Source of the DNA: a virus | IMG/VR virus record: IMGVR_UViG_3300038443_001768 | Strand: one strand, 5' to 3' | DNA length: 64,000 bases | Part shown: positions 551 through 17,708 of the stretch, piece after piece | Numbering within the stretch: the stretch's first letter is position 1 | Layout: every line of letters begins with the position of its first letter | Notes under the pieces: generated by a model | Told to the model about the DNA's origin: nothing | The model's input: the letters and a program-made list of their open reading frames with translations, nothing else | Database searches by the model: none | Translations under genes and position numbers: made by a program

Positions 551-2106
551 GGACGAATAGTACGCTTCGGTTCGACGAGTTCGTCAAAACCCATCTCCGC
601 CTCGTGAGCATCGAGGCCTTGGGCTTGAGTTCGTAATCGTGGTGATGACGATTGTCGGGCTCGTTTGGTTCGCCCGCCGTCGAGATCAGGGCGCTGGCTT
701 CCGCCCGCCAACACTGTTGTTCCGGGCGGCTCATGGACCCCTATGAAAGTCATCGGGCGCTGTCGTTATTGGTATCGGTTTGGTGCCTGTCGGTGGAGGC
801 TTCGTACCACTTCTTATTTTTCCTCTCCTGTGTGGCACCAGCAACGCGTTCCTTGAGCCCCTCCCACTGCTGAGGACGTTTTTCTAGTCAACAACCCTAA
901 CAAACCAAACCCGCTCATGGAGCCATTTCCCTTACTGGTCCTGTGGATGTCCACTATGTTGGGGTTCTTAGTGGTCCAGTTTGTGTTCCTGTATGCCTTT
1001 ACAGTCATGTAAAGGGAGAATGAGTGGGGGCGCACTGAGACGTCCCCCACATTCCCCACAACCCCCCACGACCGACTCAACGCAACCATCACTCGACCCC
1101 CTAGACGCCCCTCGCCTACCCCGCTCTGAGAGAGCGCCGACGCCCGCTCTGACGTCCATAGACAGACTCAGCCGTCCGTACCTACTGCCGACGCATCCCG
1201 TGCGCTTAGAGCGGACGAGAATGGCTTTCGTATCCGTCACTGCTACAGATGGGCGGCCGAATCGGGTACTAGGGATGCCCTCTGGGGGTATGGGTTGCGT
1301 TGGGATCAAGTCATAGCGGTTGGTCCGATGGATCGGATTTGGCTCAAACGCTTGACCTCGACGCGAACATAGGTTCGCTGGGGTCGAGTTCGCCTATAAC
1401 AGCGTTCGCATCTCAGGCGAACACAGGCTAAATGTTCGCTGAGAACAGAGCGTCTACGCGCCAAAGTAGCCGGTATGCGCCGCCCATACCCCCATTTCCC
1501 ATCCATCGGGTGTAGGTACCGACGCCTACATAGGCTGTCTATATGATGTCCTAGGCCTAGGACTACATGTTGAGATTTGGCTCTACTAGGCCAAATGCGA
1601 CCGCAACGGTTGCAGTTGCGCAAGCAACGACGTTTCGCCGCAGGCGAAACCAGCAACCCTAGGGTTGCGGATGGCCGGAAAACCAAGTCCTACATGTTGC
1701 GCTCAGAGCCCTTACGTGGCAAGGCATTGCGAGTACTTATACGCCAATGGCTCCATCTTATCCCTGTACAGGGGGCGCTCTCACGCGTGTAATGGGCGGC
1801 GGCAACCGCTGGACTGGCAATCTCGGCCGCAGCGGAACCGGGGAGAGCGATCCCCCGGGGGTTCCATCGGAATCGGCATATGCCAGACGCGGTCATCCGC
1901 CGTCACTCGCCTAGTGCGTCTCCCAGTGACACCGGACAGACAGGGAGTCAGTCCCCCGGATGACCCGCGTATCGAAACTCCGCTAGTCGGCACGGACCCT
2001 AGGTCCGGCGAACGCAAGCAACGCGTGCCAGTGCGGCGGAGCGCACTGCCCCGGTCAAGTAACCAATGCCTATAACTAGGCACGGACTCCGGGAGCAAAG
2101 GTGACT

Positions 2107-2123
2107 AGTCAATGTCATTGACT
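2107..2123. promoter_or_regulatory. Palindromic operator-like site AGTCAATG-T-CATTGACT
   Basis: Perfect 8-bp inverted repeat; near copy AGACAATGACATTGACT at 2804-2820. Confidence 0.45.
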
Positions 2124-2599
2124 TCCAAATCACGTTGTAGAACTACGCGTCTCACGCGTACGCGCGTCTCACGGGACAGCGCCGACTCACGCCAAAGACC
2201 CGAACCCCTCGCACGATCAATGACCCCCAACGACGGGGATTCACGATCAACGCCTAGGGGTCGATCACGGACAAAGAGCGGCGCGCCCAAAGAGCGAACC
2301 GGACACAAAGAGCGAACGTAGGACTATGACAATGAGAGTAGGAGGATACGAACGGATGACTAGTAGAAGTGCCCATCTGCCTCTCACGCGTAGGCCTAGG
2401 CCTAGTGCGATGCGCGTCATGCAGCCGATTGGTGGGCAACAAAGCAATGACCATAACAACCGTGTCCTCACTCACTCGACGATGCGACGAAAGCGAACCC
2501 CTTCATTCCTGCCCCGCTACGGCGGACGTTAGGCGTAGGGCTACCGAGTAGTTGATCGACAACGTCGAGCCGATCACGGCAGTGGCACTGACTACCGAA

Positions 2600-2646
2600 T
2601 CTCACGACCGCTGAGAGCGTCTCACGATTCGGTCGAGCGTCTCACG
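2600..2646 (+). repeat. TCTCACG direct repeats with exact 20-bp period (iteron-like)
   Basis: Copies start at 2600, 2620, 2640; further copies at 1779, 2150, 2167, 2382. Confidence 0.7.
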
Positions 2647-2937
2647 GACGCGTCGCACGGTTACACGCGCGTGTAACGGATGGCCGATCCTCTCCGCCGA
2701 TGGGCGGACCGATCGAACCCCCACCCGTTGGACGCTCTGCCGCGCGACCCCTAGGAGCGAACCGACCGACTCAATGAGCGAACCCCGGACAATGACAGTA
2801 GGTAGACAATGACATTGACTTGACGGAAGCCAAGAGCGTCAATTCAGGATGTCGTCGGGGTAGCGCCCGACCAACGGTAAGTTATAGGTCATGGTCGGTG
2901 GTCCGGCCAAACGTTGCTTTGCCTATAACTTGCAGGC

Positions 2938-2972
2938 GGCGCCTTGGGGTTCGATTCCCTAGGGCGCCTTTT
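2938..2972 (+). terminator. Hairpin with tRNA T-loop-like loop followed by TTTT
   Basis: GGCGCCTTGGGG-TTCGATT-CCCTAGGGCGCC-TTTT. Confidence 0.45.
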
Positions 2973-3000
2973 GGTTCAACCCTAACTAGGGAGTACTTGT

Positions 3001-3288
3001 ATGCATTCCTCTCGTTACGCTCGGCTGGTCGATGCGGCGGACGCAATGTCGGCGCGCGTTCTGGGGTTCTACGTCCCCGATGACTGGTCGGAAGACGTTT
3101 CCCCGCGCGGCGTCGTTCTGATGGTGCGCGACTTCGCTCCGCATTACGCGGTGCACGACTTCGAGGCAGCCGCGGTCGACGACGTCATCCGCGATGGTCG
3201 TACGTTCGAACACCAAGTCGAAGCGCTGAGCGCTTTCGCGCGGTCATGCGATGACGCGTTCCTGGCGTCGATCGATTTGGCGGGATGA
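3001..3288 (+). CDS. Hypothetical protein
   Basis: ORF with upstream GGGAG SD. Confidence 0.6.
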   Translation: MHSSRYARLVDAADAMSARVLGFYVPDDWSEDVSPRGVVLMVRDFAPHYAVHDFEAAAVDDVIRDGRTFEHQVEALSAFARSCDDAFLASIDLAG

Positions 3289-3599
3289 GCGATGACTTGT
3301 CACCCCTCCGCCGACGTCGTCTGTTCCGCCGCCGGCTCGACTACAGCGTCTGGCGCTGTCGTCGCCGCAATCGTCTTTGGGATGGTCCTCCTAATGGCGA
3401 TCCTTCCCGCCTACGTCCTGTACAGGCGGGACCGATGATCGGCCGTCTACGGCGGCGCGCGCTACGCCTCGTGCTTGGTGAGGAAATCTACGCATTGGTC
3501 ACGAATGACTGATGCTGAGTACGCCTCACTGGCCGCGATCGCCATGGCCTACATGCTGGCCATGGATGAGTAGTTCCATCACAACTCGAAAGGTGCATC

Positions 3600-4001
3600 A
3601 TGTCCTACAAGTACGCTGCTCTCATCATCGGCGCATGCTGGGCCGTGTCGTTCGGTCTCGTCGGCGCGTCGATGGCGCGCGCCGAGACTCAGCAGCGGTA
3701 CCCGAACGGTCACTGCTACGGGTACGCGGTTCCGTCCCTGGATTGCGTGTCACCGGACTGGACGGGGGTCGTTCAGCGCTGGTCGTCGATGCACGTTCCG
3801 GCCGATCGGCGCGGTTCGGACGTCCAGTGTTACTCCGCCGTCTCGGGACGTCCCTACGTGCAGCGCATCGGCGCGTTCGGTCCCTACTGGACGGCGTTCG
3901 CGCACGGGCATGACGTCGCGGTCGCGGCCTACGATCGGGTGCATCATGACTTCGTCAACATGACTCACCGGTCAGTGATCTGCGCAAGCTGGGCCGACTA
4001 A
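3600..4001 (+). CDS. Hypothetical secreted/membrane protein
   Basis: Hydrophobic N-terminus ending ARA; AAAGG SD. Confidence 0.65.
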   Translation: MSYKYAALIIGACWAVSFGLVGASMARAETQQRYPNGHCYGYAVPSLDCVSPDWTGVVQRWSSMHVPADRRGSDVQCYSAVSGRPYVQRIGAFGPYWTAFAHGHDVAVAAYDRVHHDFVNMTHRSVICASWAD

Positions 4002-4190
4002 TGCTCCTAAAGGGGCGTACCCGCACCGGCGAGACCGTGCATGCGGTTGAGTCTCTGCCCAACGATCCGACGCCACTAGGACACTCGCACGGGCGGTTCC
4101 GTCCGGCCCTATGCGGGGCATTGGTGCGTCCGACGCAACACCGCTTCACAGGCAACGAACCGCGCGCGTGCAAGCGCTGTCGCGCGCTCG

Positions 4191-4244
4191 CTAGCGGCTA
4201 GATGTAGGGGTCGGTCGAGCGCCGACCCCTAGATGTGGTCCTAG
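4191..4244 (+). repeat. 54-nt intergenic hairpin, family 1 copy 1
   Basis: CTAGCGGCTAGATG-[11-bp stem, 5-nt loop]-GATGTGGTCCTAG; same length and flanks as 5467-5520. Confidence 0.8.
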
Positions 4245-4267
4245 TCTCAACATGTAGGAGTCGTGTC

Positions 4268-4579
4268 ATGCGTGAATTCACCAATACCTACACAGTGGCC
4301 GAGCTTGACCGTATGCGCGCGGTCGCGGTCGAAAGGGAACGACGGGCGGCAGAGGATCGCGCGCGACGCCTGCGCGAGGAGGCAGAACGGGAGGCAGCAC
4401 AGGCAATCAACCTGTATGAGTCGATCGGTCTCACCATTATCGGTGTAGATCGGTCGCGCGCGGGGTGGACACTGAGTCTCTCCGATGGGTCAACACTGGT
4501 CATGACCTACGACAGCGACGAAGACTCTTTCTGCGGGTGCGATCTACGGCGTGACCCGAGCGGACGTCACGCGCAGTAA
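4268..4579 (+). CDS. Hypothetical protein
   Basis: AGGAG SD before ATG 4268. Confidence 0.65.
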   Translation: MREFTNTYTVAELDRMRAVAVERERRAAEDRARRLREEAEREAAQAINLYESIGLTIIGVDRSRAGWTLSLSDGSTLVMTYDSDEDSFCGCDLRRDPSGRHAQ

Positions 4580-4616
4580 GAGCGGCCGATCAAACGTCCA
4601 CACCAAAGGAACGTCT

Positions 4617-4949
4617 ATGTACGCGTACACATTGACTGTACCGTTGTGCGACAACAACGGACGCGACCGCGCCGACGTCCATCGGCACCTATGCGCGGTG
4701 TTCGCGCGCCGATTTGGGGGCTGGACATCTACCGACCATGTCGGCGGGTGGTTCGCTCCCGGTGCCGACCACCCCGGGACCGAACCGGTTCGGCGGTATG
4801 AGATTCTGACCGCTGAGCAAACCGATGCGTTCGATGACCTAGCCGCATGGGTCGCGTCAACGATGGCGCAGGACGCGGTTCTCGTCATAGGGCCGGTACC
4901 GGTGCCCGCGCGGTTCATCTCCGCCGCTACGTCGACTCGCGCCGCGTAG
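4617..4949 (+). CDS. Hypothetical phage protein
   Basis: AAAGGA SD; PLCDNNG...FGGWT...GGW...QDAV pattern typical of phage small proteins. Confidence 0.7.
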   Translation: MYAYTLTVPLCDNNGRDRADVHRHLCAVFARRFGGWTSTDHVGGWFAPGADHPGTEPVRRYEILTAEQTDAFDDLAAWVASTMAQDAVLVIGPVPVPARFISAATSTRAA

Positions 4950-5164
4950 GGGGTTCTCGGTGCGTCTCTACTGCCGCCTCTGTAGCTGCTTTGTTCGGTC
5001 CCCCTGGTCGCGTTGCTCGCACTGCGGGACCGAACACTCCCGCGACGCCCCAGCGCTTGAAGAGCCGATCCGTAAGCGTCGCCCATCCGCGCGTACGCGC
5101 GGTCTCGACCGCGGTTACCGCCGGTAGCCCCGTATCAAGGCATACGCCTAGAAAGGTCTCAGCA

Positions 5165-5470
5165 ATGGCCAAAATCTCAGCGCGCGGGTCGGTCAAGCTC
5201 GCGCAGGCATCGAACGCGTACACCGACACCGATGGATGGGACCATAAGGTGAGGATCGCTCTCCGCTCGGATGGCGCGATACTGTACGCGCATGACTTGC
5301 GGTCACCGGATCGGCGAGACGCCTACGGTGCGCGCGGCTGGAATCGGGGCGGCTACTCCATCCAAGCTCGCCTGAACAAAGAGCAGATGTCCTCACCCGT
5401 CACGGCACTGAGCGTCTTCGAGCGTTACGCGTCGGCGCGCTTTGGCGCGACCCTCGACAGCCCGCGCTAG
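5165..5470 (+). CDS. Hypothetical protein
   Basis: GAAAGG SD before ATG 5165. Confidence 0.7.
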   Translation: MAKISARGSVKLAQASNAYTDTDGWDHKVRIALRSDGAILYAHDLRSPDRRDAYGARGWNRGGYSIQARLNKEQMSSPVTALSVFERYASARFGATLDSPR

Positions 5471-5520
5471 CGGCTAGGTGTAGGCCTAGGGTTGATCCCT
5501 AGGCCTAGACGTGGTCCTAG
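5467..5520 (+). repeat. 54-nt intergenic hairpin, family 1 copy 2
   Basis: CTAGCGGCTAGGTG-TAGGCCTAGGG-TTGAT-CCCTAGGCCTA-GACGTGGTCCTAG. Confidence 0.8.
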
Positions 5521-5551
5521 GCCTATAACTACCCTTGAAGGAACACCCAAA

Positions 5552-6187
5552 GTGGAAACCAAAACCTACAAGTACACGCATTCCGAGTCCGCGCGCAAAG
5601 CAGCGATGCGGCGGCGCATCCTTCAGACCTTCGCCGACGCGTCCGCTGATGATCTTGCGTCCGGGCAGGAATGGTACTACCGCGCGAACCGTGCAGCCGC
5701 ATCGATCGCTGAAGGTTCCTCACTGTCCGCCGACACAGTGGCCGGTGTGATCGCCGCTCTGTCCCCGCGGTGCGCGTGGGCCACGAATCTCGCATGGGCG
5801 TCGGCCGTCGTCGATGCCTACGTCGGCGGTTCCGATGCTCCCCCTGCGGTGCATACACGGACGATGCGCGCGCAGGCATGGCGCATCGCACAGGGAGAGC
5901 GCCCGTTGGACGTCCTCAACGGACCTAAGGTGCGCGCGTTCTACGCAAACATTGTCGGCAACGCCGACGCCGTCACGGTCGACACGTGGGCCGCGCGCGT
6001 CGCGGAAGGCAACTGGACGCCCCATCCGCGTAAGTCCGGCAATAACTACGCGGCGACCGATGCCCCGCAGGGGCGTCGCTACGCGCTGATCGCGGACGCG
6101 TACCGCGAGGCCGCCGCACTGGTCGGTCACTCCCCGCGCGACGTTCAGGCCGCCGTATGGGTGCACGTACGGCAGTCGGCGGACTAG
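5552..6187 (+). CDS. HhH-GPD-fold DNA glycosylase/lyase-like protein
   Basis: LNGPKVRAF (HhH Lys), AVTVDTWAARV (cf. EndoIII VDTH), QAAVW; GAAGGA SD before GTG. Confidence 0.6.
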   Translation: METKTYKYTHSESARKAAMRRRILQTFADASADDLASGQEWYYRANRAAASIAEGSSLSADTVAGVIAALSPRCAWATNLAWASAVVDAYVGGSDAPPAVHTRTMRAQAWRIAQGERPLDVLNGPKVRAFYANIVGNADAVTVDTWAARVAEGNWTPHPRKSGNNYAATDAPQGRRYALIADAYREAAALVGHSPRDVQAAVWVHVRQSAD

Positions 6188-6211
6188 TCCTACAGCCCTG
6201 AGGAGCTATCC

Positions 6212-6406
6212 ATGTACTACAAGATCACCGAGGAGTTGCCCGACGGACGCGTCCGCGGACTAGGCCGCACCGGCGACCGCGAAGAGGCGCTGCGCATCTA
6301 TCACGCCGATCCGCGATGGGCGCGCACCCTTCATCAGTCGAGCACCCCGTTCCCGCCCGCTAAGGCGCAGCGAGGGGAGCTATCCAAGGCCTACAAGAAA
6401 GGCTAG
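6212..6406 (+). CDS. Hypothetical protein
   Basis: AGGAGCTATCC-ATG start. Confidence 0.7.
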   Translation: MYYKITEELPDGRVRGLGRTGDREEALRIYHADPRWARTLHQSSTPFPPAKAQRGELSKAYKKG

Positions 6407-6412
6407 TCCTGT

Positions 6413-6547
6413 ATGTCTCAGTCTCACGGCGGTTCACGTTCGCGCGGCGATGACTTCGCTGAGATGGTCTCAGTGATTCTCATGATTGCCGGGATCGCGC
6501 TGTGCGTGATCGCGCCACTCGTCGAAGTCATCAAGTCCATCATCTAG
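6413..6547 (+). CDS. Small membrane protein
   Basis: 44-aa ORF with one hydrophobic helix; GAAAGG SD. Confidence 0.55.
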   Translation: MSQSHGGSRSRGDDFAEMVSVILMIAGIALCVIAPLVEVIKSII

Positions 6548-6565
6548 CTCAGGGAGCTATCCAAG

Positions 6566-6802
6566 ATGTACAACAACCTCTTCAACCCCAACGTCCCCTA
6601 CCGCGCGGACGGCCATTGGTCGCTCCCGCTCAACCGGCGAGTCGCCTACGCCGACGAGCGCGCCGGTAGGATCGCCGAGAATGTGGCCAACCGGGAGCGG
6701 CTCGGACCCGTCGTCGCCGTCGATGGCGAGACCTATCAGTTCGACGCCTATGCGGAGCTACTGTCGGCCGCGTACCCCGGCCGGAACACCATCAACAACT
6801 GA
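6566..6802 (+). CDS. Hypothetical protein
   Basis: GGGAG SD inside the repeat motif. Confidence 0.65.
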   Translation: MYNNLFNPNVPYRADGHWSLPLNRRVAYADERAGRIAENVANRERLGPVVAVDGETYQFDAYAELLSAAYPGRNTINN

Positions 6803-6812
6803 GAGGATCGAC

Positions 6813-7043
6813 ATGTCCATCAACTACGCTCGCATGCAGCGTTCGCTGCCTCGCCTGAAGGCGGCGCTCACTCGCGCCGTCAAGAGCGGCGATCCTGCCC
6901 GCGTCGAGGCCGCGTGTCGCGCCGCTGTCGCCGAATGGGACGCCTGCGGGGCATGGCCGGACGATTGGTCGCGCTGGCAGCGCGCTCTCGACGATTCGCG
7001 TCCGCCGTGGGAGTGGATTCGTCTCGAAGACCTCAGCGCGTAG
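6813..7043 (+). CDS. Hypothetical phage protein
   Basis: GAGAGG SD; WPDDWSRWQRALDD motif. Confidence 0.7.
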   Translation: MSINYARMQRSLPRLKAALTRAVKSGDPARVEAACRAAVAEWDACGAWPDDWSRWQRALDDSRPPWEWIRLEDLSA

Positions 7044-7093
7044 CCGCGCGGGGCATCGGACCTCTCGGTGCCCCCTGCGAGTGCGAGCTATCC
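7035..7093 (+). repeat. 59-nt hairpin element, family 2 copy A
   Basis: AGCGCGTAGC-[variable stem-loop]-AGTGCGAGCTATCC. Confidence 0.85.
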
Positions 7094-7146
7094 AGGCCGC
7101 GCAATCCAGGCCGCGCATCAACTAGTCCTACAAGAAAGGCAACATC

Positions 7147-7545
7147 ATGGCCAAGCGTTCCCCTGACCGCGAGCGGTTCCTCGCCGACGTCATCGTGACG
7201 GCCGTCGAGGGCGGCATCGGCTACTGGTCGCAGGTCTCGGATTACCGTTGGTGGTCCGATCTGATCGGCGGGCACAACGCTACGGCGGTGTTTGAGACAT
7301 CGGTGATCGTCTACCCGCTGCTGGACGATGAGTCCGGCTACAGCGTCAACGGCGTCCCCGTCGGCATCGACTCGATCGCGCGCGCCATCGAGCGGATCAA
7401 GTCCGACCGATCCATTCGGCTCAGCGATGCCTACTTGGCGCGCATCCTGATCGCCGACCGTGACAACGACGCCGGGAACCTCGATTCCGACGACGCCGAC
7501 GTGATCGTTCAGGTAGCGGTGCTCGGTGACGTCATCTACGGGTGA
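7147..7545 (+). CDS. Hypothetical phage protein
   Basis: EGGIGYW...DADVIVQVAVLGDVIYG; GAAAGG SD. Confidence 0.75.
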   Translation: MAKRSPDRERFLADVIVTAVEGGIGYWSQVSDYRWWSDLIGGHNATAVFETSVIVYPLLDDESGYSVNGVPVGIDSIARAIERIKSDRSIRLSDAYLARILIADRDNDAGNLDSDDADVIVQVAVLGDVIYG

Positions 7546-7561
7546 GGCGGGGGAGCTATCC

Positions 7562-7771
7562 ATGTCTTACGACGCAATCCTGATCGAGTTCCGCGACCGC
7601 CGCACCGATCGCACCGTGTGGGCGGTCGTCGCTGATCGGATCGTTTGGTGCACCCCTACCGAGGTCACCTACATCAAGTGCGACAGTGGCGTGCGTCACG
7701 GGTCGCGCATCCTGCCGTCCGAGTACGTGGCGCTGCGCCCCTGCGTGGCCGATCGGCCGATCGGGCGGTAA
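7562..7771 (+). CDS. Hypothetical protein
   Basis: GGGAGCTATCC-ATG start. Confidence 0.65.
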   Translation: MSYDAILIEFRDRRTDRTVWAVVADRIVWCTPTEVTYIKCDSGVRHGSRILPSEYVALRPCVADRPIGR

Positions 7772-7793
7772 ACGACAACTAAGGGAGCTATCC

Positions 7794-7907
7794 ATGTCTG
7801 TCGTGTTCTTCATCATCAAGTGCCCGCGCTGTTCGTCTGAGGCGTGCGTCCGCGTTGGACGCACCGGTGTCTGCGGGCGCGGCCATCACGTCCGAGTCAA
7901 CCGCTAG
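7794..7907 (+). CDS. Small Zn-finger-like protein
   Basis: CPRC...C...C..GHH; GGGAGCTATCC-ATG start. Confidence 0.55.
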   Translation: MSVVFFIIKCPRCSSEACVRVGRTGVCGRGHHVRVNR

Positions 7908-7964
7908 CGCGTAGCCATCAGGGGCCAAGTCATAGGATTTGGCCTCGATGAGTGCGAGCTATCC
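7906..7964 (+). repeat. 59-nt hairpin element, family 2 copy B
   Basis: 58/59 identical to 12579-12637. Confidence 0.9.
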
Positions 7965-8001
7965 CACGCACTGCATGTCCATCAACAACTGGAGGTACTT
8001 G

Positions 8002-8178
8002 ATGTCCAAGTCGCAGTCGTTCACGTCCCTGTCGGCGGCGATGGGGTACCTGAAGGCCCAGGCTCGCGCGGAGGCGAACGCCGCCCACGCGGAGGACCTG
8101 AAGCGCGCCGCCAACCTCCGCCGGTCCGCGTCGATTGCCCGCAAGGCGCCCGGCACGGGACCGCGCATCGCCGCCTGA
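8002..8178 (+). CDS. Hypothetical protein
   Basis: GGAGG SD. Confidence 0.6.
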   Translation: MSKSQSFTSLSAAMGYLKAQARAEANAAHAEDLKRAANLRRSASIARKAPGTGPRIAA

Positions 8179-8225
8179 GCCGTCGCTCCAGCCAGTAGTC
8201 GGTTCGACACAGGTACCCCGGCGAC

Positions 8226-8289
8226 TAGCCGTCGCGGGCATCGGGTGAGACAATTCCGGTGCCCTCGATGGGTAGCCACGGAGCTATCC
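8226..8289 (+). repeat. Hairpin element, family 2 divergent copy C
   Basis: TAGCCGTCG-CGGGCATCGG...CCGGTGCCC-TCGATGG...GAGCTATCC; inner stem shared with copy A. Confidence 0.7.
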
Positions 8290-8778
8290 CAGCGACGCAG
8301 ATTGTTCTACAACAACAGGAGCAACGCCATGACCACCAAGATGACGCCCGACGAGGCGCGCAAGGTCACCCGTCCGCAGCCCCGGGCCGGTGATCGCTGT
8401 GTCTTCTACTCCGAGATGTTGCACGAGACCGTCGACTCCCATGGGCGGTGGTTTCTGGTGCGTGACTACACGGGCCAGGAAGTCACCGTCGTCCGTCACC
8501 TGCGAGGGGTCAACGACCCCGCCCCTGAGTACGACGGGCCGGGCGAGGACGACGTCGAAGACCACGACGCCGATGAGGGCGGCAAGGGGTGGTTCGAGTG
8601 CTCGCGCGGCTACATCGTCCGCGCTCTCGACGGACGCGAGTTCATGGTTCACGTCGAGGAAATCGACGGCTGGGACCGCGACCTTGGACAGTTCTACGGA
8701 CCCTCCGGTGTTTGGGGCAGCGTTGAGTAACGAGCTATCCCAGCGCAGCACAGATTGTTCTACAACAACAGGAGCAAC
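8281..8778 (+). repeat. ~45-bp leader direct repeat flanking one gene (8281-8325 and 8732-8778)
   Basis: GAGCTATCCCAGCG-N3/5-CAGATTGTTCTACAACAACAGGAGCAAC in both copies. Confidence 0.85.
8329..8730 (+). CDS. Hypothetical protein
   Basis: AGGAG SD. Confidence 0.7.
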   Translation: MTTKMTPDEARKVTRPQPRAGDRCVFYSEMLHETVDSHGRWFLVRDYTGQEVTVVRHLRGVNDPAPEYDGPGEDDVEDHDADEGGKGWFECSRGYIVRALDGREFMVHVEEIDGWDRDLGQFYGPSGVWGSVE

Positions 8779-9138
8779 ATGAAGACCTACGGTGAACCTG
8801 GCGGCGTGTACCTGACGTATGCGCTGAACCTCGATCGCGGCGCCTACGTGGTCGAGAACGAGGCCGGAGACGAGCTTTACGCGTCTGGCTCTGAGGCCGA
8901 CGCGCAGCGCTTCTGCGAAGACCTGATCCAGCGCGAGGCCGCCGCTCTCATGTACCAGTCGCAGGCGGCACGCGACGCTCAACGCGGCGGCTACGGAGGC
9001 CCTGCGTACTGGCAGTATCTGGACGACCATGCCTGCAAGATGCGCGACTACTGGCGCGCCCGTGGAGACGAGGAGCAGGCCGCCCTCATGTTGACCCGTT
9101 CGCTGGGTCAGGCGCTCGCTGGCAACGACGGCGAATAA
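8779..9138 (+). CDS. Hypothetical protein
   Basis: AGGAG SD. Confidence 0.7.
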   Translation: MKTYGEPGGVYLTYALNLDRGAYVVENEAGDELYASGSEADAQRFCEDLIQREAAALMYQSQAARDAQRGGYGGPAYWQYLDDHACKMRDYWRARGDEEQAALMLTRSLGQALAGNDGE

Positions 9139-9163
9139 CAACCTCATCAGTTAGGAGCTATCC

Positions 9164-9457
9164 ATGTCCTACAACTCAGACGGCGAGCGCACCGTCCTCA
9201 CTGACGACGCCTACAAAGAGGCGTTCGGTTGCGGGCGCGCCGCAGCCCGCGAGTACCTCAACAACCTCGAAGGCGCGACGCGCAGCGAGGCCCACTGCGA
9301 CGACGTGCGCGAGTCGGTCCACCCGCGGGCGTTCTCGGAGGCGTTGGACGCCCTTGAGGACTTCGCCGCCCTGCCCATCTCAGAGGCCGTCGATGACGGA
9401 ATCAACGAGGCGTGGAACGAATTCATCCACGACGTCGCAGTCAACGACTACATCTAG
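9164..9457 (+). CDS. Hypothetical acidic protein
   Basis: AGGAGCTATCC-ATG start. Confidence 0.7.
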   Translation: MSYNSDGERTVLTDDAYKEAFGCGRAAAREYLNNLEGATRSEAHCDDVRESVHPRAFSEALDALEDFAALPISEAVDDGINEAWNEFIHDVAVNDYI

Positions 9458-9466
9458 AACAACAAC

Positions 9467-9760
9467 ATGCCTAAGATCGCAGAGACCTACAACGGCTGGA
9501 CCAACCGGCCGACCTGGAACGTCAACGTCTGGCTTTCCAACGATGAGAGCCTCTACTGGACGGCCCTGGACGTGGTGCGTGGCTACAAGGAGCACACCAC
9601 CAATTGGTCCGCGAAGGGTGCGGGCCAAGCGCTGCGCGAACTGGTCTTCGCGAACCGCGACGACCGAGGCGGGTTCGGTGACCTGAGGCGCACCGAGCTA
9701 TCCAAGGTCAACTGGACCGAGCTTGGCGCGGCCTGGCTCGAAGACATCATCCACGGCTAG
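9467..9760 (+). CDS. Conserved phage hypothetical protein
   Basis: YNGWTNxxTWNVxxWLxND...VNWxEL motif common in phage early genes. Confidence 0.75.
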   Translation: MPKIAETYNGWTNRPTWNVNVWLSNDESLYWTALDVVRGYKEHTTNWSAKGAGQALRELVFANRDDRGGFGDLRRTELSKVNWTELGAAWLEDIIHG

Positions 9761-9899
9761 GACCATGAGCATCATCGACCTCATCGCACTGACCCAGGCC
9801 TCTCTACTGGAGAGCGTCTTCGACTTCTACTACGACAACCCAGCGCGCCAGCCAGGAGGCTGGCACCGCGCTATCCGCGCTCACATCAAGGCGTAGCAC

Positions 9900-10151
9900 A
9901 TGAACATGGACCCCAACATCGTCCTGCTGACCTACCAGGGAGTCGTCCGCTATCACGGACGGGTGGTTGTCACGGTCGGCGACGAGACGCTCTCGCAGGC
10001 CGTCGTACGCGCCCTGGACGCTGACCCCGACTTGCCGACGCCGCAACCGTGGGACCGCCTGCTCTTCCCGGACGCCGCGCCCGGCTCACAGTGGGCGACG
10101 CTGACGACGGAGCGGTTCCCGGCGCGCTCCATCAACCCCTTCAACGGCTAG
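9900..10151 (+). CDS. Hypothetical protein
   Basis: ORF in gene array. Confidence 0.6.
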   Translation: MNMDPNIVLLTYQGVVRYHGRVVVTVGDETLSQAVVRALDADPDLPTPQPWDRLLFPDAAPGSQWATLTTERFPARSINPFNG

Positions 10152-10160
10152 GACGACAAC

Positions 10161-10367
10161 ATGACACGCAAGGACTACGAGTCGATCGCGCTGGTGCTGC
10201 TGTCGGAGCGTTCGCGCTCGATGGGCGACGAGTTCGACAACGACGTTGCAGCCAAGGTGCTCGACAACGTCGCGTACGCGCTGGCCGTCGAATTCAAGGC
10301 CGACAACCCCCGGTTCGATCGGGACCGGTTCCTCATCGCGAGCGGCGCAACCCGAACCAGCCGCTAA
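10161..10367 (+). CDS. Conserved phage hypothetical protein
   Basis: MTRKDY...DNPRFDRDRF motif. Confidence 0.75.
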   Translation: MTRKDYESIALVLLSERSRSMGDEFDNDVAAKVLDNVAYALAVEFKADNPRFDRDRFLIASGATRTSR

Positions 10368-10400
10368 GCGAGCTATCCAAGTTCTACATCTAGGAGCAAC

Positions 10401-10643
10401 ATGAAGGCCTTTGTCGTCTACATCGACACCGACGAACTCTCCGCCGCCGATCTGCGGGTGGCGGTCATCCTGGGGGCTGATTGCGGCGCAGACACCGAGC
10501 CCGCCGTGACCGTCGAGAGGATCGTCTACGACGGTTACCGCCTCGATGTCCGCACCGGCGAGCGCTCCGGACCCAAAGCCCTCACCCTGCGCTACAAGGC
10601 GCAGCCGCTCAGCCATGGTTACGCCGACAGCGACCCCTTCTAG
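10401..10643 (+). CDS. Hypothetical protein
   Basis: AGGAG SD. Confidence 0.65.
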   Translation: MKAFVVYIDTDELSAADLRVAVILGADCGADTEPAVTVERIVYDGYRLDVRTGERSGPKALTLRYKAQPLSHGYADSDPF

Positions 10644-10649
10644 GAGTAC

Positions 10650-11186
10650 ATGATGAACAACGACATCCGCACCGCCAACGTCGAGGTCTCCGAGGCCCCT
10701 GGCGGTCGTGGCGGCTACCACATCGTCCGCTCGCACGGCATCGCCGGTACGTGGTGGGCGTGCTCGCGCAGTGGCGACGACGCCATCTCGATGGCTGTCT
10801 ACGCGTCGCTGTTCGGTGAGTGCCCGCGCCGCCCGTGGGAGCCGCCGATGGCGCCCAACGAGGTCGACGGCATGAGGTCGCCTCTGGCGGTGTCCTACGA
10901 CAGCGAGGCCGATGCGCGAGAGGCCTTTGAGCGCATGGAGCGCGCGTGGTCGGCGGCCCTGCGGGGGACGCTGGTCGAGCTTCAGCCCTACGCGGAGGAC
11001 GACGACTCAGTGACCCTCACCGACGAGGACTTCGAAGTCCTCAACCAAGGTGGCTATATCAGCCTCCCCGACGGGCGCGTCGTCATCGACGGGCTCGACT
11101 GCTGCGCGCACGTCCTGACGCCGGGCACCTATTGGGGCGCGGACGGCAACTGCTACGAAGTACCAACCAAGATCACCAACAGCTAG
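10650..11186 (+). CDS. Hypothetical protein
   Basis: AGGAG SD. Confidence 0.7.
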   Translation: MMNNDIRTANVEVSEAPGGRGGYHIVRSHGIAGTWWACSRSGDDAISMAVYASLFGECPRRPWEPPMAPNEVDGMRSPLAVSYDSEADAREAFERMERAWSAALRGTLVELQPYAEDDDSVTLTDEDFEVLNQGGYISLPDGRVVIDGLDCCAHVLTPGTYWGADGNCYEVPTKITNS

Positions 11187-11197
11187 GAGCACACCCA

Positions 11198-11677
11198 ATG
11201 TCTGCGTTCGTCGTCAGCAAGGCCCATATCGATGCTATGATCACGGCCGCGATCGACCTGAACATCAACTACTGGAACGGCGAGAGGTGGTGCGTAGTCA
11301 GCGCCGCTACCGCCAACGAGGTCGGACAGGCGCTGGTCGACGAGTGCGTGCGTTCGGTCAGCTACCGCTACCCCAACGATGACGTCAAGGCCGGTGAATT
11401 GCCCGGTCCCGGCGACGCCTACTACGTCGAGCCGTACCAGTACATGCGCACGCGTAGGTTCTCCGACGCAGAGGTCCGGGACCTCGTTCGCTGCTACGAG
11501 TATCAGGCATGCGAACACCCTGGATGGCGGACCTCACCGGCCGAGTACTTCTGTCGCGCCGTCGAGGGCAAGCTGCTATCGCGCATCCCGGGCGAGGGCG
11601 CGCGTTGGGGCGTCGAAGCCGACGACGTCGGCTACGGCACACGCAACGACTTCAACATCACCGATCTACTCAGCTAG
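11198..11677 (+). CDS. Conserved hypothetical protein
   Basis: MSAFVVSxxHID...CYEYQACEHPGW motif; AGGAG SD. Confidence 0.75.
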   Translation: MSAFVVSKAHIDAMITAAIDLNINYWNGERWCVVSAATANEVGQALVDECVRSVSYRYPNDDVKAGELPGPGDAYYVEPYQYMRTRRFSDAEVRDLVRCYEYQACEHPGWRTSPAEYFCRAVEGKLLSRIPGEGARWGVEADDVGYGTRNDFNITDLLS

Positions 11678-11687
11678 GGGCAACGCC

Positions 11688-11969
11688 ATGAACTCGATCA
11701 AGTTCCAGGCCATCTCTGAGGCGGCGGCGCGCGACCTCGACGGCAACGTTGTCGCGGCCTTCGACCTCGCCGACGAGGACGGCTGCTATCCCGCGGCGCT
11801 CATCGCGTGGCAGGGACGAGCCCATCCGACTCGTCACGGCACCCACATGGCGGTCGTGCCGCCTGATCGCGCAGTCTATTTCGTCGATGGCGCGTACGAC
11901 TTCGCCGAATCCCTCGACGCTGTCAGTGACGCCTTCCATCGCTGGCTGCGCAAGAACCCCATCAACTAG
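11688..11969 (+). CDS. Hypothetical protein
   Basis: ORF in gene array. Confidence 0.65.
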   Translation: MNSIKFQAISEAAARDLDGNVVAAFDLADEDGCYPAALIAWQGRAHPTRHGTHMAVVPPDRAVYFVDGAYDFAESLDAVSDAFHRWLRKNPIN

Positions 11970-11983
11970 GAGCTATCCACGTC

Positions 11984-12190
11984 GTGAAGAGCATTATCTT
12001 CTTCCGGGTCGATGTGCCCGGCATCGGTGACAGCGTTCGCGTCCAGGACGACGTCGCCGGCATTGACAGCAAGCTGCGGGCCGCACACCTGAACCACGAC
12101 CTGACCATCGAGGTCACGACGTCGTCGGGGCGTGCGCTCGTTATCCCGATCGATCTGATCGGGCCGTTCCGCGACTACCAGGACCGATGA
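11984..12190 (+). CDS. Hypothetical protein
   Basis: AGGAGCTATCC upstream of GTG. Confidence 0.6.
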   Translation: MKSIIFFRVDVPGIGDSVRVQDDVAGIDSKLRAAHLNHDLTIEVTTSSGRALVIPIDLIGPFRDYQDR

Positions 12191-12578
12191 TGGAGTCCGC
12201 GATCACGCAGGACACGATCATGGCGGTAGCGCTGCGACATGATCCTTACGCCGAGTGGGCGTCCGACGAGCCGGACGAGAACTGCCTTCTCATCGCGCAT
12301 CATGCGGTCGTGTTCCTGCTCGACCGTTACCCCGACGCCTACGAGGACCCCAACGTCCTCGCTATCGGCGATCACACACGCGTCGTCTTTCCGACCCTCA
12401 ACAACTGGACCCTGTGGCGAACATCAACGAGCAGCGCGAGGTCGCGCAGCACATCATGTCGCTCATCGTCAAGGGCACGCCGCATGCCGACGCGCAGATC
12501 GCGGAGGCCGGTATGTGTCTCGCCGAACTGGTCATCGCGCTCGATCATTGGCGGCGTACCGGCGGATTCGACCCCTAC

Positions 12579-12637
12579 AGCGCGTAGCCATCAGAGGCCA
12601 AGTCATAGGATTTGGCCTCGATGAGTGCGAGCTATCC
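12579..12637 (+). repeat. 59-nt hairpin element, family 2 copy D
   Basis: AGCGCGTAGCCATCA-GAGGCCAAGTC-ATAG-GATTTGGCCTC-GATGAGTGCGAGCTATCC. Confidence 0.9.
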
Positions 12638-12662
12638 AAGCCCTACAACTAAAGGAACACCT

Positions 12663-12875
12663 ATGCCTGTCGTTCACTTCACATCCTCAGACTCCTTCAT
12701 GGAGTTAGACAATCGCGCCGCGCTGACCGCTGACGTCGAGGTCGTCGACTACGTCGAGGCCACCTACTGCGCCCTCCGCACGGGTCCCGACGGCGTCACC
12801 ATCGCCGTCTACGAGGGCGGCGCATGGGAACTGCCGGACGGCCGCCGGTTCTCCGATTGGGCCGTCCGGGTCTAG
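12663..12875 (+). CDS. Hypothetical protein
   Basis: AAAGGA SD. Confidence 0.65.
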   Translation: MPVVHFTSSDSFMELDNRAALTADVEVVDYVEATYCALRTGPDGVTIAVYEGGAWELPDGRRFSDWAVRV

Positions 12876-12884
12876 GACATCAAC

Positions 12885-13277
12885 ATGATCGTCAACGGCA
12901 CCACCTACCACGACCGCACCGACGAACGTGTCATCGCGGCCCTTGAGTGGGCGCGCGCGCGCCGCGTCCGTATCCGGGTCCACTACGGAACCACCGTGAC
13001 CTCGATGCCCGCCTCGCTGGGCTCGCCTGTCGGGTCTGATTGGGGCGACACGTATCACGTCGAGGGCTACGTCGGGCGCTCCACCGGCAACGAGAAGATT
13101 CCATTGTTGGTCAACAACGCTCGATCCACAGGCGGCCCCGCGATCCTCGACGACTGCATCGTCAGGGTCCGTATGGCGAACCGCTCCGAGGGTGGCGATA
13201 TCTACCGCCACCCCTCATACTGTCCCCCGCCGCGTGGCGACTTCGACGAGAAGACCTACAACCGACATTTCGCCTAA
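12885..13277 (+). CDS. Conserved phage hypothetical protein
   Basis: NGTTYH...GYVGRSTGxxKIPLL...GGPAILDDCIV motif. Confidence 0.75.
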   Translation: MIVNGTTYHDRTDERVIAALEWARARRVRIRVHYGTTVTSMPASLGSPVGSDWGDTYHVEGYVGRSTGNEKIPLLVNNARSTGGPAILDDCIVRVRMANRSEGGDIYRHPSYCPPPRGDFDEKTYNRHFA

Positions 13278-13279
13278 GC

Positions 13280-13540
13280 ATGCCTACTACTCAGGAAATT
13301 CAAGCTGCTCGCGACGGCCTGCGGCGGCTCGCGCGGGTCATCAACCACGCGGCCGACGAACTGCACCTTGCGTCGCTGTGCTCGTTGACCATCGACCGAA
13401 ACCCCAACGACGACAACCTGCGAGATGATCAGCGCCGCTCAATCGACCATCACGTCGCGGCGGCGCGCGGCGTCATCGAGACCCAGCCGCCCCTGTACGC
13501 GTACGCGCTGTTCACGCTTCTATCCAAGCACGGACTCTAA
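13280..13540 (+). CDS. Hypothetical protein
   Basis: ORF in gene array. Confidence 0.6.
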   Translation: MPTTQEIQAARDGLRRLARVINHAADELHLASLCSLTIDRNPNDDNLRDDQRRSIDHHVAAARGVIETQPPLYAYALFTLLSKHGL

Positions 13541-13549
13541 GGACCCTAC

Positions 13550-14209
13550 ATGACCAAGATCATCAACAAGCTCTTCGGCCGCTTCAAGGAGCAGCCGCTT
13601 TGGAGCGACGAGTCCTCGAACCAGCGCTGGTCAATTGGGCCGATCAAGTTGGAGTACAAGCCGAGCGTTGGTCTGACGTGGTGGCTCGGCAAGGGGTCGT
13701 CGCTAACCCTGGGCCGACGCCCTGGGTTCAAAGCTCTGGTCCCGGTGTGGGTGCCGGTCTTGCTCCCGGTGCGGCTGCGCATCTTCCACCGCGACGGCGT
13801 CACAGTGACGCTGCGCTTGCGTCGCCCGTACCTGACGCGCTGGGTGCTCTGCGTCGGCACCTGGGCCTACGACGGCGGCGGGCGGCTCGCCAGGGGGCCT
13901 GAGTTCTACCGGCGCGTGGTGCTGACGTGGTGGCGGGTCACTCACCGCCCGCAGAGCGACTACTACATCAAGCCCTGGTACGGCTACGGTGCGGACGGGC
14001 TGGAGTTGTTGTTCAGAGACCGCGAGGCACGCAAGGCCTCCAACGCTCCATTCAAGACCGACCCAGGTGTCGACTATCCCCGCGTAGAGCGCATCTGCCA
14101 GTTCCCGTGGGGATCGACGCCGCCGCGCGGATTCCCGCTCCGCATGGGTGTCCTGGACGGGTTCCGAGACTGGCGTCAGACCAAGTACTACAAGAAGGTG
14201 GCGGCATGA
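13550..14209 (+). CDS. Hypothetical basic, Trp-rich protein
   Basis: AAGGA SD; 219-aa ORF. Confidence 0.65.
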   Translation: MTKIINKLFGRFKEQPLWSDESSNQRWSIGPIKLEYKPSVGLTWWLGKGSSLTLGRRPGFKALVPVWVPVLLPVRLRIFHRDGVTVTLRLRRPYLTRWVLCVGTWAYDGGGRLARGPEFYRRVVLTWWRVTHRPQSDYYIKPWYGYGADGLELLFRDREARKASNAPFKTDPGVDYPRVERICQFPWGSTPPRGFPLRMGVLDGFRDWRQTKYYKKVAA

Positions 14210-14463
14210 CCATCAACCCCATCATCTACGACGCCGACGACTGGCGAGTCATCCGAATCAATCCGATCGACTTCCGGGTCGAGCGGCACTACAAGGGAAC
14301 CGACCACGTGGACTCAGCGCTGGTGTCGCTGCGCGAGACCGTGCATCCTGGCCTGCGCGAGTTCATCGTCGTGCGCGGTCCGTTCTACAGCTATCAACTG
14401 CCCGCCGAGCTTGCGCGAGCCATGTGGCATGCAGTCACGCACGGCCTCGGCATCAGACTCTAA
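14206..14463 (+). CDS. Hypothetical protein
   Basis: ATGA overlap with upstream gene. Confidence 0.6.
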   Translation: MTINPIIYDADDWRVIRINPIDFRVERHYKGTDHVDSALVSLRETVHPGLREFIVVRGPFYSYQLPAELARAMWHAVTHGLGIRL

Positions 14464-14474
14464 GGAGAAACAAC

Positions 14475-15008
14475 ATGTACCGCATGCAGCGCCGCTACGT
14501 CAGCAACCCCAACTACGAGCACGCGCTGGCCGTCTTCGCGGACGGTCTGCTCCGCAACAACGACTACGACCGTCAGCTATGCGGGGCGGTCCTCCACGGC
14601 GGCTCCGATCGGTTCGGCTCGGACGTCTTCGACATCGTCGACCCCAACGTGGTACCGGACCATTTCGTGCTCGGTCCGATCTTCGTCGGGCTGGGCTCCG
14701 ACACGGACTGCGACGGCACCACCTACCACGCCGTCAAGATCGACGCCGACAACCTGCGCGACGCGCTGATCCAGGCGGACGAGTACCCGCACGTCTACAA
14801 GGTCATCACGCTTCGCGAGGCCGACGATGACGACATCTGGGAGGACGGCCGGAAGCCGGGCTGGGACGAGCGCGCCTACTTCCTCCAGGAGGGCTACGCC
14901 TCGTTGGGCGCGGATTGGAACCCGTGGGTCTACGACGACTCGCTCGGCACGGTGCTCGATCACACCAACGACGTTCCGGTCATCAACGATGACGACCTCT
15001 ACTACTGA
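14475..15008 (+). CDS. Hypothetical acidic protein
   Basis: AAGGAG SD. Confidence 0.7.
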   Translation: MYRMQRRYVSNPNYEHALAVFADGLLRNNDYDRQLCGAVLHGGSDRFGSDVFDIVDPNVVPDHFVLGPIFVGLGSDTDCDGTTYHAVKIDADNLRDALIQADEYPHVYKVITLREADDDDIWEDGRKPGWDERAYFLQEGYASLGADWNPWVYDDSLGTVLDHTNDVPVINDDDLYY

Positions 15009-15021
15009 GAGGAGCTATCCG

Positions 15022-15231
15022 ATGTTGAACAACGAGTACATCATGTTCTTGGTCAAAACTCGCCTGACCCAGGACTGCGACGACGTCGTGCTCGTCAAGG
15101 CGCGCGACCGTGAGGACGCCAAGCGGCAGGCGTTGCCGTTTCTCGGCCACTACGCCAACGAATACGTGGTCGAGCCGTTGACGCGAAGGACGGACAACGT
15201 CATCGTCAGTCTCAGCTTCGCCCTCTCCTAG
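15022..15231 (+). CDS. Hypothetical protein
   Basis: AGGAGCTATCC-G-ATG start. Confidence 0.65.
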   Translation: MLNNEYIMFLVKTRLTQDCDDVVLVKARDREDAKRQALPFLGHYANEYVVEPLTRRTDNVIVSLSFALS

Positions 15232-15293
15232 AAAGGACATCATGTACAACGCATTCGTCATCTATCGAGACCGCATGGAAAGAGAGGCTCAGC

Positions 15294-17708
15294 ATGGCCG
15301 ATGAGTACGAAGACGATAAGAGAATCCTCCTCGTCGAGGACACCAAGACACAACTCATCGATGCGCTGGCCGACCTGATGCTGATCCATGGCGGCGACGG
15401 CTCGAAGGTCCAAGACGAGATTGAGCGCGCCTGGTCGTCAGCGCACCGCCACTACGAGGCCGAGAAGGACGGCGACTCCGAGGGCTTCACGCTCATGGTG
15501 TGCGCGCAGGACGGCAGCCGCTCGGTTCCGCTGCGCGAGTGGGTGACGCGATGACCGGCCGACAGATCGGCACCGTCGAAATCCTGCGTCTCAGGATCTA
15601 CAACATCGACCCCGACGACGAGTACTCGGACGAGGTCGCGGTCGAGCCGGGCGAGTGCCCCGTCCTCGTCGAGGACGGCGTCTACTTCTGGCGCATGAGG
15701 GGCCGCCTCAGTCGCCGCGTCGGTGCTGACGTCGCGGCGCTCGGCGATGGAATGTTCATGGTCTCGCCAGGCGTTGACGTTCAGGTCGGCGACGAGATTG
15801 AGTTCTCGTCGCGTCGGTTCTCCGCCGATGAGTTCCAGGCGCTGCTCAGCGACGACGTTTGTCGCGAGGGTGACACCTCTCAGCGCCTGCGTTTCAACAT
15901 CAAGGAGGGGTATCTGCGATGAGACGCGTCAGGATCGAAGTCACCGAGTACTACATCATCGATATCGGCGAGGAAAACGACGGCACGGACGCCGTCCTGG
16001 AACTCGACGAGATGGACTCAGACGATCGTGCCGCCGCCTACCAAGAGCGGTACGTCAGGGTCTTCGATGACAACACTGGCGGCGAGTTGCCGGTCGATCG
16101 GACGGTCGTGTGATGCTGCTGACGTTCTCCGTGTACTCCGCGGAGCCCTACCCAATCAACGAGTCGTGGTATACGCTCGAAGAGGCTATCGAGGCCGAGT
16201 CCCACACCGTCGCCGCTGAGGCAAACGCGGATCACATCCCGGACCCGTCCGAGGACACGCGCGAGGCTTTCCGGCTGGAGGTCGTGCATGCCGCTACGGC
16301 GGCGTTGCAGCGGCCGGGCGACACCTACCGTGACCCGCTCGGGGTCGTGTGGTCGCTGGTCGAAGACCGCTCCCGAACCTAACGAAAGGACACCAAGATG
16401 AGCACCAAGTACGACGCCTACGTGGAGGCCATCAATCGCGCCGACGAGGCGATGCAGGAGGCGTTGCGCGTCTTGCCTCAAGACGCCAGCGAGCTATCCG
16501 TGCTGGTCACGAACGGAACGTTCCGTGACGTCCGTGCGACGCTCACGATGGCCTACGGGCTCCAGAGGGAGGCCCAGGATGGGACTCGCTGACATCGCCG
16601 CCCGCCTGGCGGCGTACGAGAACGAGGAACTCTCCTACGACGAGGAGGTCGAGTTGTTCCAGGAGTTGCTGGACACCGACGTGATCTACCATCTCCAGGG
16701 CTCGTACGGGCGCCGGATGCAGGAACTGATCGAGGAAGGGAAAGTGCGTGTCGCAGGAGGTAGCTGAGGTCGTCGTGTGGATCGAGACGCCGATCGACAC
16801 CATCAAGTACACCATCAGAGGGATCGCCCGGAATGATGGAGCGCCCCTGGGTGGCGTCTATGTCGAGCGCGAGACCGACGGCGGCGTCGATCAGGCGCAG
16901 GCCGAGGTCGTCCAGCACGGGCCTAGGCTTCTCCTGGACTTCATCCAAGGCTGGCTCAGCGAGAGCATCATCGATGATGACGACGAGCACGACCGGCGGT
17001 GGAATCAGCGCCCGGTGGGCCTATGGTCGCTGATCTGGCGGGCCTGGATGGACGCTGCGGGGGCGCCCACGGCGTGAGAGTTGTCCGGTATCTAGTCGAG
17101 CACATCGCGATCTGCGCAGGTTTCGTGAACGGAACCAGGCACTTCAACGAACGAAAGGACTGAGCAATGATGAGACTTGAGGAAACCATCACGGTGGAGC
17201 GAACTGGCCGCTCCATCGCCTACCGAGGCAGCTACCGAGGCGGCGTCCTCACCATCATCGACCATCGCGGGTACGTGATGACTCCCGAGGAGTTGGGCTA
17301 CGCGGTCGGCGACGAGGCATATGAGAGGTCCCTGAGCCTGCGTCGTAAGCGCGCGCTCGAACTCTGCAAGCTCATCTTCGGTGGCTTCGTTGCCGACGAG
17401 GAACGCGGTGACGACCAGGCCTCGTACTACGCGACCCGACTTCACCGCTTCCACCTGCGCGGTGTCGACCGCACCGAGCAGGGCGTACGCTGGGTGTGGG
17501 AGTACGAGACCTTCTCCCCCTACACGGACTGATGATCGTTCTCGGCATTTTCTGCGTCGTCGTGGCGAGCGGGGCGCTGATCCTCGCAGGCGACGCATTC
17601 GTGCGTTCGGTCGATGATCTCAATCCCGTGCCGCGTGTCCTTGCTGCGCTGGCCCTGTCTGGGCTATGCGCGATCTTCATCTACCTGGCCGCGCTGTGCT
17701 TGGCTTGA
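15294..17708 (+). other. Run of small translationally coupled hypothetical genes (15294-15554, 15551-15922, 15919-16113, 16110-16382, 16398-16592, 16579-16767, 16748-17077, 17167-17532, 17532-17708)
   Basis: ATGA/GTGA overlaps and SD sites; 16579-16767 has an LQGSYGR motif typical of phage small proteins. Confidence 0.65.

Follow-up and report, generated by a model that had tools for sequence, protein, structure and literature searches.

The ~7-kb early mRNA of phage T7 carries five RNase III signals, and loops or mismatches at such sites lead to single-strand cuts that leave stabilizing 3' hairpins (PMC3867540). In phage SP82, RNase III targets are stem-loops with internal loops that receive a single cut on the downstream side (PMC1935012). 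The E. coli enzyme requires a minimum helix of 11 bp and has preferences in its proximal and distal boxes (PMC1540722), and that of Streptomyces coelicolor favors duplexes rich in GC, with cleavage at a [4/4] internal loop (PMC10126417). Here we analyze a 64,000-nt stretch of an uncultured phage (IMG/VR record IMGVR_UViG_3300038443_001768; hereafter the window), for which an initial annotation had proposed a family of fixed-length 59-nt elements with conserved flanks, a swappable hairpin and a terminal 9-nt motif, GAGCTATCC (the 9-mer). The hairpins are real and well supported as RNA, and they most likely work like the RNase III sites of T7 and SP82.

The family has six members, which span 4.2-12.6 kb and each lie 23-57 nt ahead of the next start codon:

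4191-4244, forward strand: sister hairpin F1a, 54 nt with 22 bp, two G·G mismatches, a UAG/GUG core and no 9-mer
5467-5520, forward strand: sister hairpin F1b, with a UAG/GUR-type core and no 9-mer
7035-7093, forward strand: copy A, a 21-bp interrupted RNA hairpin (7035-7089) with the 9-mer at its end
7906-7964, forward strand: copy B, with A's architecture and another upper arm (4 bp, a bulged A, 11 bp and a tetraloop)
8220-8289, forward strand: copy C, with a UAG/GUA core, a G·G mismatch and A's inner stem; hairpin at 8220-8277, 9-mer at 8281-8289 outside the stem
12579-12637, forward strand: copy D, a 59-nt duplicate of B, exact except for one G-U to A-U change

All three 59-nt copies described initially (A, B and D) are present with their flanks, and the divergent copy C does share A's inner stem. 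C was recovered by a covariance model that was built from five copies and not trained on it (E 0.001-0.004 in the window). In G001, a 139.5-kb, 99%-complete relative with 65-95% DNA identity to the window over common blocks, the same model found C at E 2e-5 to 7e-5. The family had been drawn too narrowly, since the hairpins at 4191 and 5467 belong to it without carrying a 9-mer. Nor is its length fixed: the orthologue of A in G001 has 57 nt (L004 7104-7160), and the position orthologous to B holds a 56-nt element with a different upper arm. Copy D sits in a gene block absent from the relatives and differs from B at a single base (G at 7922, A at 12595), either of which pairs with the same U partner, as had been noted. 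B and D are the product of a recent duplication, which reduces the independent versions in the window to two. Copies A and B recur unchanged in an independent assembly (L088), and D in another (L129, 99.9% identical). Rfam returned no match in the window at E ≤ 1; the sequence family is undescribed, while the kind of signal is already known.

All six copies have in common a UAG/GUR core with a G·G mismatch beneath an arm of 13-16 bp, which exceeds the 11-bp minimum of E. coli RNase III; total pairing amounts to 19-23 bp and stability to -29 to -38 kcal/mol, with z at -3.3 for B and -5.75 for D. From the base upward, the fold of A, B and D consists of AGC/GCU, a mismatched G·A, four pairs of which the last are U·G and A-U, and a loop of G·G plus C·A. 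This mismatch box is invariant (7041-7045/7079-7083 in A, 7912-7916/7950-7954 in B) and is followed by a 4-bp helix, a 1x1 mismatch or bulge, 9-11 bp and a variable loop. The insert of A was said to differ and still pair, and it does, with CGCG/UGCG below a 10-bp stem in place of the CAUC/GAUG of B and D; CGUC/GACG and CGUC/GAUG are further variants of this helix across copies. In the relatives' versions of C the G·G/C·A box is kept and the 4-bp helix is replaced by another, co-varying one. These versions (L004 8945-9055; L100 2585-2670) also have a longer context with an extra possible pairing, GGUUCG/CGAACC, and a 15-nt spacer ahead of the 9-mer that is absent in the window.

The stems show strong covariation. 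In an alignment of eight distinct, mutually related sequences fitted to the model, 93.8% of cells are paired and 11 of 21 pairs have changed on both sides, compared with 29-45% for slid controls, and values as high were reached by 0-1 of 500 shuffles. The sense strand folds 4-14 kcal/mol better in all 12 of 12 copies owing to its G·U pairs, a bias that points to mRNA as the folded species, with single-stranded DNA of that strand formally possible. A descriptor consisting only of the core and a 12-bp hairpin gave six matches in 10 kb, where shuffles averaged 0.03, and its sense-strand matches in the window are exactly the six sites above, alongside two weak false matches on the minus strand; it also recovered four of five copies in G001. 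Together these results bear out the earlier view of a structured RNA module. The upper arms have moved between positions: that at B differs in G001, F1a and F1b have traded upper stems in the relative, and A and C have the same arm.

The hairpins overlap the ends of genes. The 5' arms of the F1 pair and of family 2 (the initial name for the elements with 9-mers) have room for two TAGs seven bases apart, and the upstream gene stops at one of the two in 5/6 copies. Two of these genes are:

6813-7043, forward strand: open reading frame (ORF) of 76 aa directly before A, which stops at A's second TAG, ends Ser-Ala and is seen only in this phage when compared with relatives
12414-12587, forward strand: ORF of 57 aa before D, which ends Ser-Ala-stop inside D; its start is uncertain

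Both do end in the Ser-Ala-stop described initially, because the upstream gene uses a TAG inside the 5' arm. A translation-coupled switch had also been suggested; the stop codons in the 5' arms are at most compatible with it.

We compared these hairpins with the early regions of T7 and SPO1, which when folded yielded hairpins of 45-68 nt (52-64 nt for T7 R0.5 and R1.1 and two intergenic SPO1 hairpins) with conserved flanks, variable tops and a start codon 10-48 nt downstream. Like the T7 signals (R0.3, R0.5, R1, R1.1 and R1.3), the window's elements are interrupted hairpins of ~45-68 nt that come in a set of five or six and separate early genes, with a short distance to the next start, conserved flanks beneath a variable top (as in R0.5 versus R1.1) and no U-tail. 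Unlike them, they have GC-rich stems and a G·G/C·A box that is symmetric where the T7 signals have an asymmetric loop, they overlap upstream stop codons, three copies are fused to a repeated 9-mer, and their cleavage is a prediction. The sequence of B resembles R0.5 and R1.1 more than do 99.4% of structure-preserving shuffles (p~0.005), a likeness that is weak after multiple testing. The two SPO1 hairpins (5796-5854 and 7106-7164 of L113) lie in the host-takeover (early) region between genes 43/44 and 45/46, are unannotated and are each 59 nt long, with conserved flanks and different tops. They are probably the mapped Bs-RNase III sites. They have a CUAG...CUAG base like that of F1a and F1b and a swappable top, and in one of them the 5' flank contains the stop codon of the gene upstream; their mismatch box differs, and the SPO1 genes have many separate early promoters. 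The rpsO-pnp hairpin of S. coelicolor, an RNase III (AbsB) site, is likewise GC-rich, intergenic and cut at a small symmetric internal loop (PMC10126417). There, however, a [4/4] loop is cut on both sides and leads to decay, whereas the loops here are 1x1 or 2x2, a comparison of loop size.

With moderate confidence, we read the hairpins as cut-and-cap signals of the T7/SP82 kind, which would process and stabilize a long early transcript through cleavage by host RNase III. All six would be carried on this one transcript, each forming, as mRNA and not on the other strand, an interrupted hairpin of two turns where a gene ends. Host RNase III would bind the hairpin, the mismatch box (U·G, A-U, G·G and usually C·A) would break the helix, and the cut would fall at or beside the box, probably mainly on one strand. 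This would leave an upstream message with a protective 3' hairpin and a downstream message with a short new leader. In the upper arm only pairing would matter, arms having been swapped among the copies when conserved flanks recombined or underwent conversion, and the 9-mer would be a separate signal of older origin, from which A, B and D take their last base pairs. The features of T7/SP82-type sites recur here: an interrupted hairpin of about two turns with covariation, a helix of at least 11 bp beside the presumed cut, and several intergenic copies shortly before ribosome-binding sites, without a U-tail and in what is probably a single operon. The processing site that the initial annotation listed among its options is thus the predicted function, by its geometry. 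The enzyme would be the host's because no RNase III gene was found in G001, the genome on which our enzyme and recombinase searches were run; NusG was not found there either. GC content, AAAGGA-type ribosome-binding sites and best matches suggest that this host is actinobacterial.

Several observations weigh against this reading. The hairpins resemble those of SPO1 in architecture only, with sequence similarity not above that of shuffles. The GC-rich helices beside the box fit the proximal-box preferences of E. coli RNase III poorly by inspection; the actinobacterial enzyme favors GC (PMC10126417). With 30-100 nt of flank, the lower stem of copy A is beaten in silico by alternative folds. The related sequences, together with arms common to several copies, leave few independent covariation events, and only two phage lineages have the family: neither the model nor the sense-strand descriptor matched in the 46%-complete record of G002, a distant relative with a 77% identical DNA polymerase, or in the 29%-complete record of G003. 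The search for a host left one enzyme without a bacterial match, matched RtcB to mixed phyla at ~50% identity and found no WhiB.

Strong hairpins at or just past stop codons, with variable loops and upper stems, could also act uncleaved, as barriers at 3' ends or as weak attenuators that grade expression along the early operon, resembling repetitive extragenic palindromes (REPs) or terminators that lack U residues. We consider this unlikely. Such a role needs no invariant internal mismatch box that reduces stability. No U-tail follows the stems (the tails read AUCC, UCUC and GCCU), unlike in intrinsic terminators, and no sigma-70-type promoter was detected behind the hairpins or elsewhere in 900-16000, by a scan that may miss other promoter types. 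A link to REPs and their associated tyrosine transposases (RAYTs) is opposed by the absence of a Y1 HUH transposase (PF01797) from G001; a REP has a GTAG foot and a conserved short hairpin, whereas the GTAG of A, B and D lies within the stem and is missing from some copies.

The window covers the rightward arm of a phage genome of ~142 kb, and the transcript presumed to carry the hairpins starts there. The arm runs from a gene-poor control region (about 900-2975) through ~100 small genes to helicase, primase and DNA polymerase A, the last at most 29% identical to actinophage enzymes. From the gene content of G001 we read the phage as a lytic siphovirus of ~140 kb, because the head of G001 is of HK97 type, one of its ORFs, of 1,874 aa, is taken to be the tape measure, and no integrase was detected; it also carries 25 tRNAs and tRNA-repair genes. 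Contigs L100 and L101 are variants of G001. A blastn search of the region found no cultured close relative; its matches were short and fell in genes of Mycobacterium and Streptomyces phages, with none at all for the hairpin element itself; two metagenome matches to the element pattern sit in unrelated DNA and are chance. The start of the arm holds one further feature:

2815-2975, forward strand: putative early promoter region and structured leader, the presumed start of the rightward transcript with all six hairpins

The sigma-70 scan did not detect a promoter at 2815-2975. The leader (2849-2975) has two hairpins followed, upstream of the first early gene, by a U-tailed hairpin whose 12-bp stem is capped by a loop resembling a tRNA T-loop (2938-2968), the sole sense-strand terminator-like site in 900-16000. 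This hairpin is conserved in the relative, where the stem differs in sequence and still pairs and where ARAGORN calls a pseudo-tRNA; it is possibly an attenuator or an RNase P substrate. The gene-poor region before it (1000-2830), ~77% conserved in the relative, contains the repeated short motifs CTCACG, GAGCGAAC and CAATGAC/CATTGAC and is likely to hold divergent promoters or an origin. At the other end of the arm, the AAA helicase gene (54085-56277) contains a LAGLIDADG-type insertion; it is probably an intein and is missing from the 394-aa gene of the relative.

The 9-mer extends well beyond the hairpins:

6203-32236, forward strand: 21 copies of GAGCTATCC, a signal in its own right that A, B and D incorporate

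These 21 copies compare with 0.46 expected, and the whole of G001 has 20. In both phages the 9-mer is always on the sense strand and confined to the first 26-30 kb of the arm; in the window its density drops with distance from the start of the arm. About eight copies lie in ribosome-binding sites, six or seven in coding sequence and the remainder between genes. The coding copies keep the rare codon CTA (6% of Leu codons), which is used by 6/14 Glu-Leu-Ser tripeptides and conserved in relatives; by this codon choice the 9-mer is under nucleotide-level selection even inside genes. It had been proposed that the hairpin is coupled to the 9-mer and could sequester it through pairing of TAGC with GCTA. 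This pairing is present in B, which starts with TAGC, while A and D have the three pairs AGC/GCU. The 9-mer contributes to no more than 3-4 of the basal pairs; pairing extends over its first 5-6 bases and leaves UCC unpaired in all. A general coupling is not supported, and the 9-mer is apparently a separate and older signal, because 17 of the 21 copies have no hairpin, F1a and F1b have no 9-mer, that of C lies 3-15 nt beyond the stem at a spacing that varies among relatives, and G002 keeps six sense-strand 9-mers with no family hairpin in the available 46% of its genome. TAGC joined directly to the 9-mer (22217 in the window; the G001 orthologue of 10370) could be a hairpin deletion or equally a stop codon followed by a 9-mer, and was not used as evidence.

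Among described motifs, the 9-mer is closest to the start-associated sequences of cluster K mycobacteriophages (PMC12699233) and the stoperators of cluster A (PMC9283540), which are also short, asymmetric, present in ~20 copies, co-oriented with transcription and mostly at gene starts. It differs from both in its sequence, in having about a third of its copies in coding sequence, and in that no integrase and no repressor was identified. The 9-mer may be an extended Shine-Dalgarno sequence; against a 16S rRNA tail it reaches -8.4 kcal/mol (other sites -5.6 to -7.5), which holds for the half of the copies preceded by GG and not for the coding ones. An antisense guide was rejected as an explanation: no exact complement occurs on the transcribed strands of G001, only a few scattered wobble matches. 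The 9-mer is also the complement of tRNA positions 5-13, probably by coincidence, as its flanks fail to extend the match and the phage tRNAs do not contain it.

An invariant G·G/C·A box beneath variable stems, a strand-specific 9-mer selected at the nucleotide level, and a U-tailed hairpin ahead of the first early gene could together mark binding sites for a phage protein or for the host RNA polymerase/Nus complex, with the purine-mismatch box as protein site and the 9-mer as a boxA-like partner, serving antitermination or translational control. The relative even encodes a 42-aa Arg-rich ORF (G001 39513-39641), a stretch of which recalls the arginine-rich motif of lambda N. That ORF is absent from the window, though, hairpin and 9-mer are mostly apart, the sites start 1.3 kb past the leader terminator they would have to override, and no NusG paralogue was found in G001, all of which leaves this explanation quite unlikely.

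Repeated intergenic stem-loops in a hypervariable region of small genes are also known from the promoter early stem-loop (PeSL) cassettes of the T4-like phages RB49 and phi1 (PMC2839356), where, as here, some gene gains and losses fall on the elements. The elements could then be gene-cassette junctions, attC- or PeSL-like, with insertion and excision of small genes as their main role. Genes found in a single phage stand directly before A in the window and before B in the relative, ending inside the element and borrowing its TAG. Some lineage-specific genes are bounded by 9-mers, D is a precise 59-nt copy of B, the upper arms have been exchanged, and synteny breaks at copies A, B and C. Nevertheless, no tyrosine (PF00589), serine or Y1 recombinase was found in G001, the base is AGC/GCT rather than the AAC/GTT core of the R boxes in an integron attC site, and the element has neither the promoter of a PeSL (PMC2839356) nor a terminator. 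Breakpoints are not enriched either: they occur at 10/13 junctions with a 9-mer and 10/14 without (p=0.55), in a hand-curated, low-power comparison of 27 junctions in two genomes where gene turnover is very high throughout, hence the lack of enrichment. A cassette function, one of the initial suggestions, is thus very unlikely; recombination between conserved flanks is more plausibly a side effect, and a less marked one than in PeSLs. In the same region, a 47-bp direct repeat (8281-8327/8732-8778) made of the 9-mer, a leader and a ribosome-binding site flanks a 133-aa gene absent in relatives, an arrangement that fits insertion or duplication by recombination at the leader, as expected.

The phage's own RNase P might instead cut at the 5' foot of the hairpins, leaving each downstream message with a 5' end shielded by pairing. 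As at the acceptor end of a tRNA, the stem closes with U-A and runs into UCCA, and G001 encodes a CCA-adding enzyme. It also has an RNase P RNA-like gene that keeps the CCA-pairing GGU loop (minus strand, 22521-22824, L094 2521-2824; RF00010, 28 bits, E 7.8e-6, below the gathering score). Both copy B and the A of G001 show C-1, U+1/A72 and a tail of UCC(A/C); C-1 occurs in many of the phage tRNAs and a U discriminator in some. But only 2/5 family-2 copies keep the terminal pair, those in which it is broken being A, D and the B of G001; a T-loop at 12 bp from the foot is absent, F1a, F1b and C lack a tail of this kind, and that of B reads CCC. We regard RNase P cleavage as highly improbable. 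The RNase P RNA-like gene lies upstream of the window's portion of the genome, in a phage that also encodes RtcB, Thg1, Pth2, an RF-1-domain protein and an RNA ligase.

Hairpins and 9-mer might finally form one phage-specific system of post-transcriptional control, distinct from host RNase III sites, in which a phage factor acts on the early message one gene at a time, by cutting or protecting it. The factor would be the phage's own RNase P ribozyme or an RNA-binding protein or nuclease that reads the G·G/C·A box and GAGCUAUCC, and the same modules would let new genes plug in through the element's stop codon. We give this combined explanation little credence.

On the favored reading, the hairpins are not a new kind of system. 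If they are cut by host RNase III, T7/SP82-style punctuation of early messages would extend to a group of large siphoviruses that is uncultured and probably actinobacterial. Less well explained is the 9-mer, which phages with 77% identical DNA polymerases retain both at ribosome-binding sites and within coding sequence. The hairpins themselves would be a natural series of a dozen substrates in which one invariant mismatch box is combined with freely varying stems, and would thereby provide ready-made material for testing the specificity, little studied so far, of RNase III from high-GC Gram-positive bacteria.

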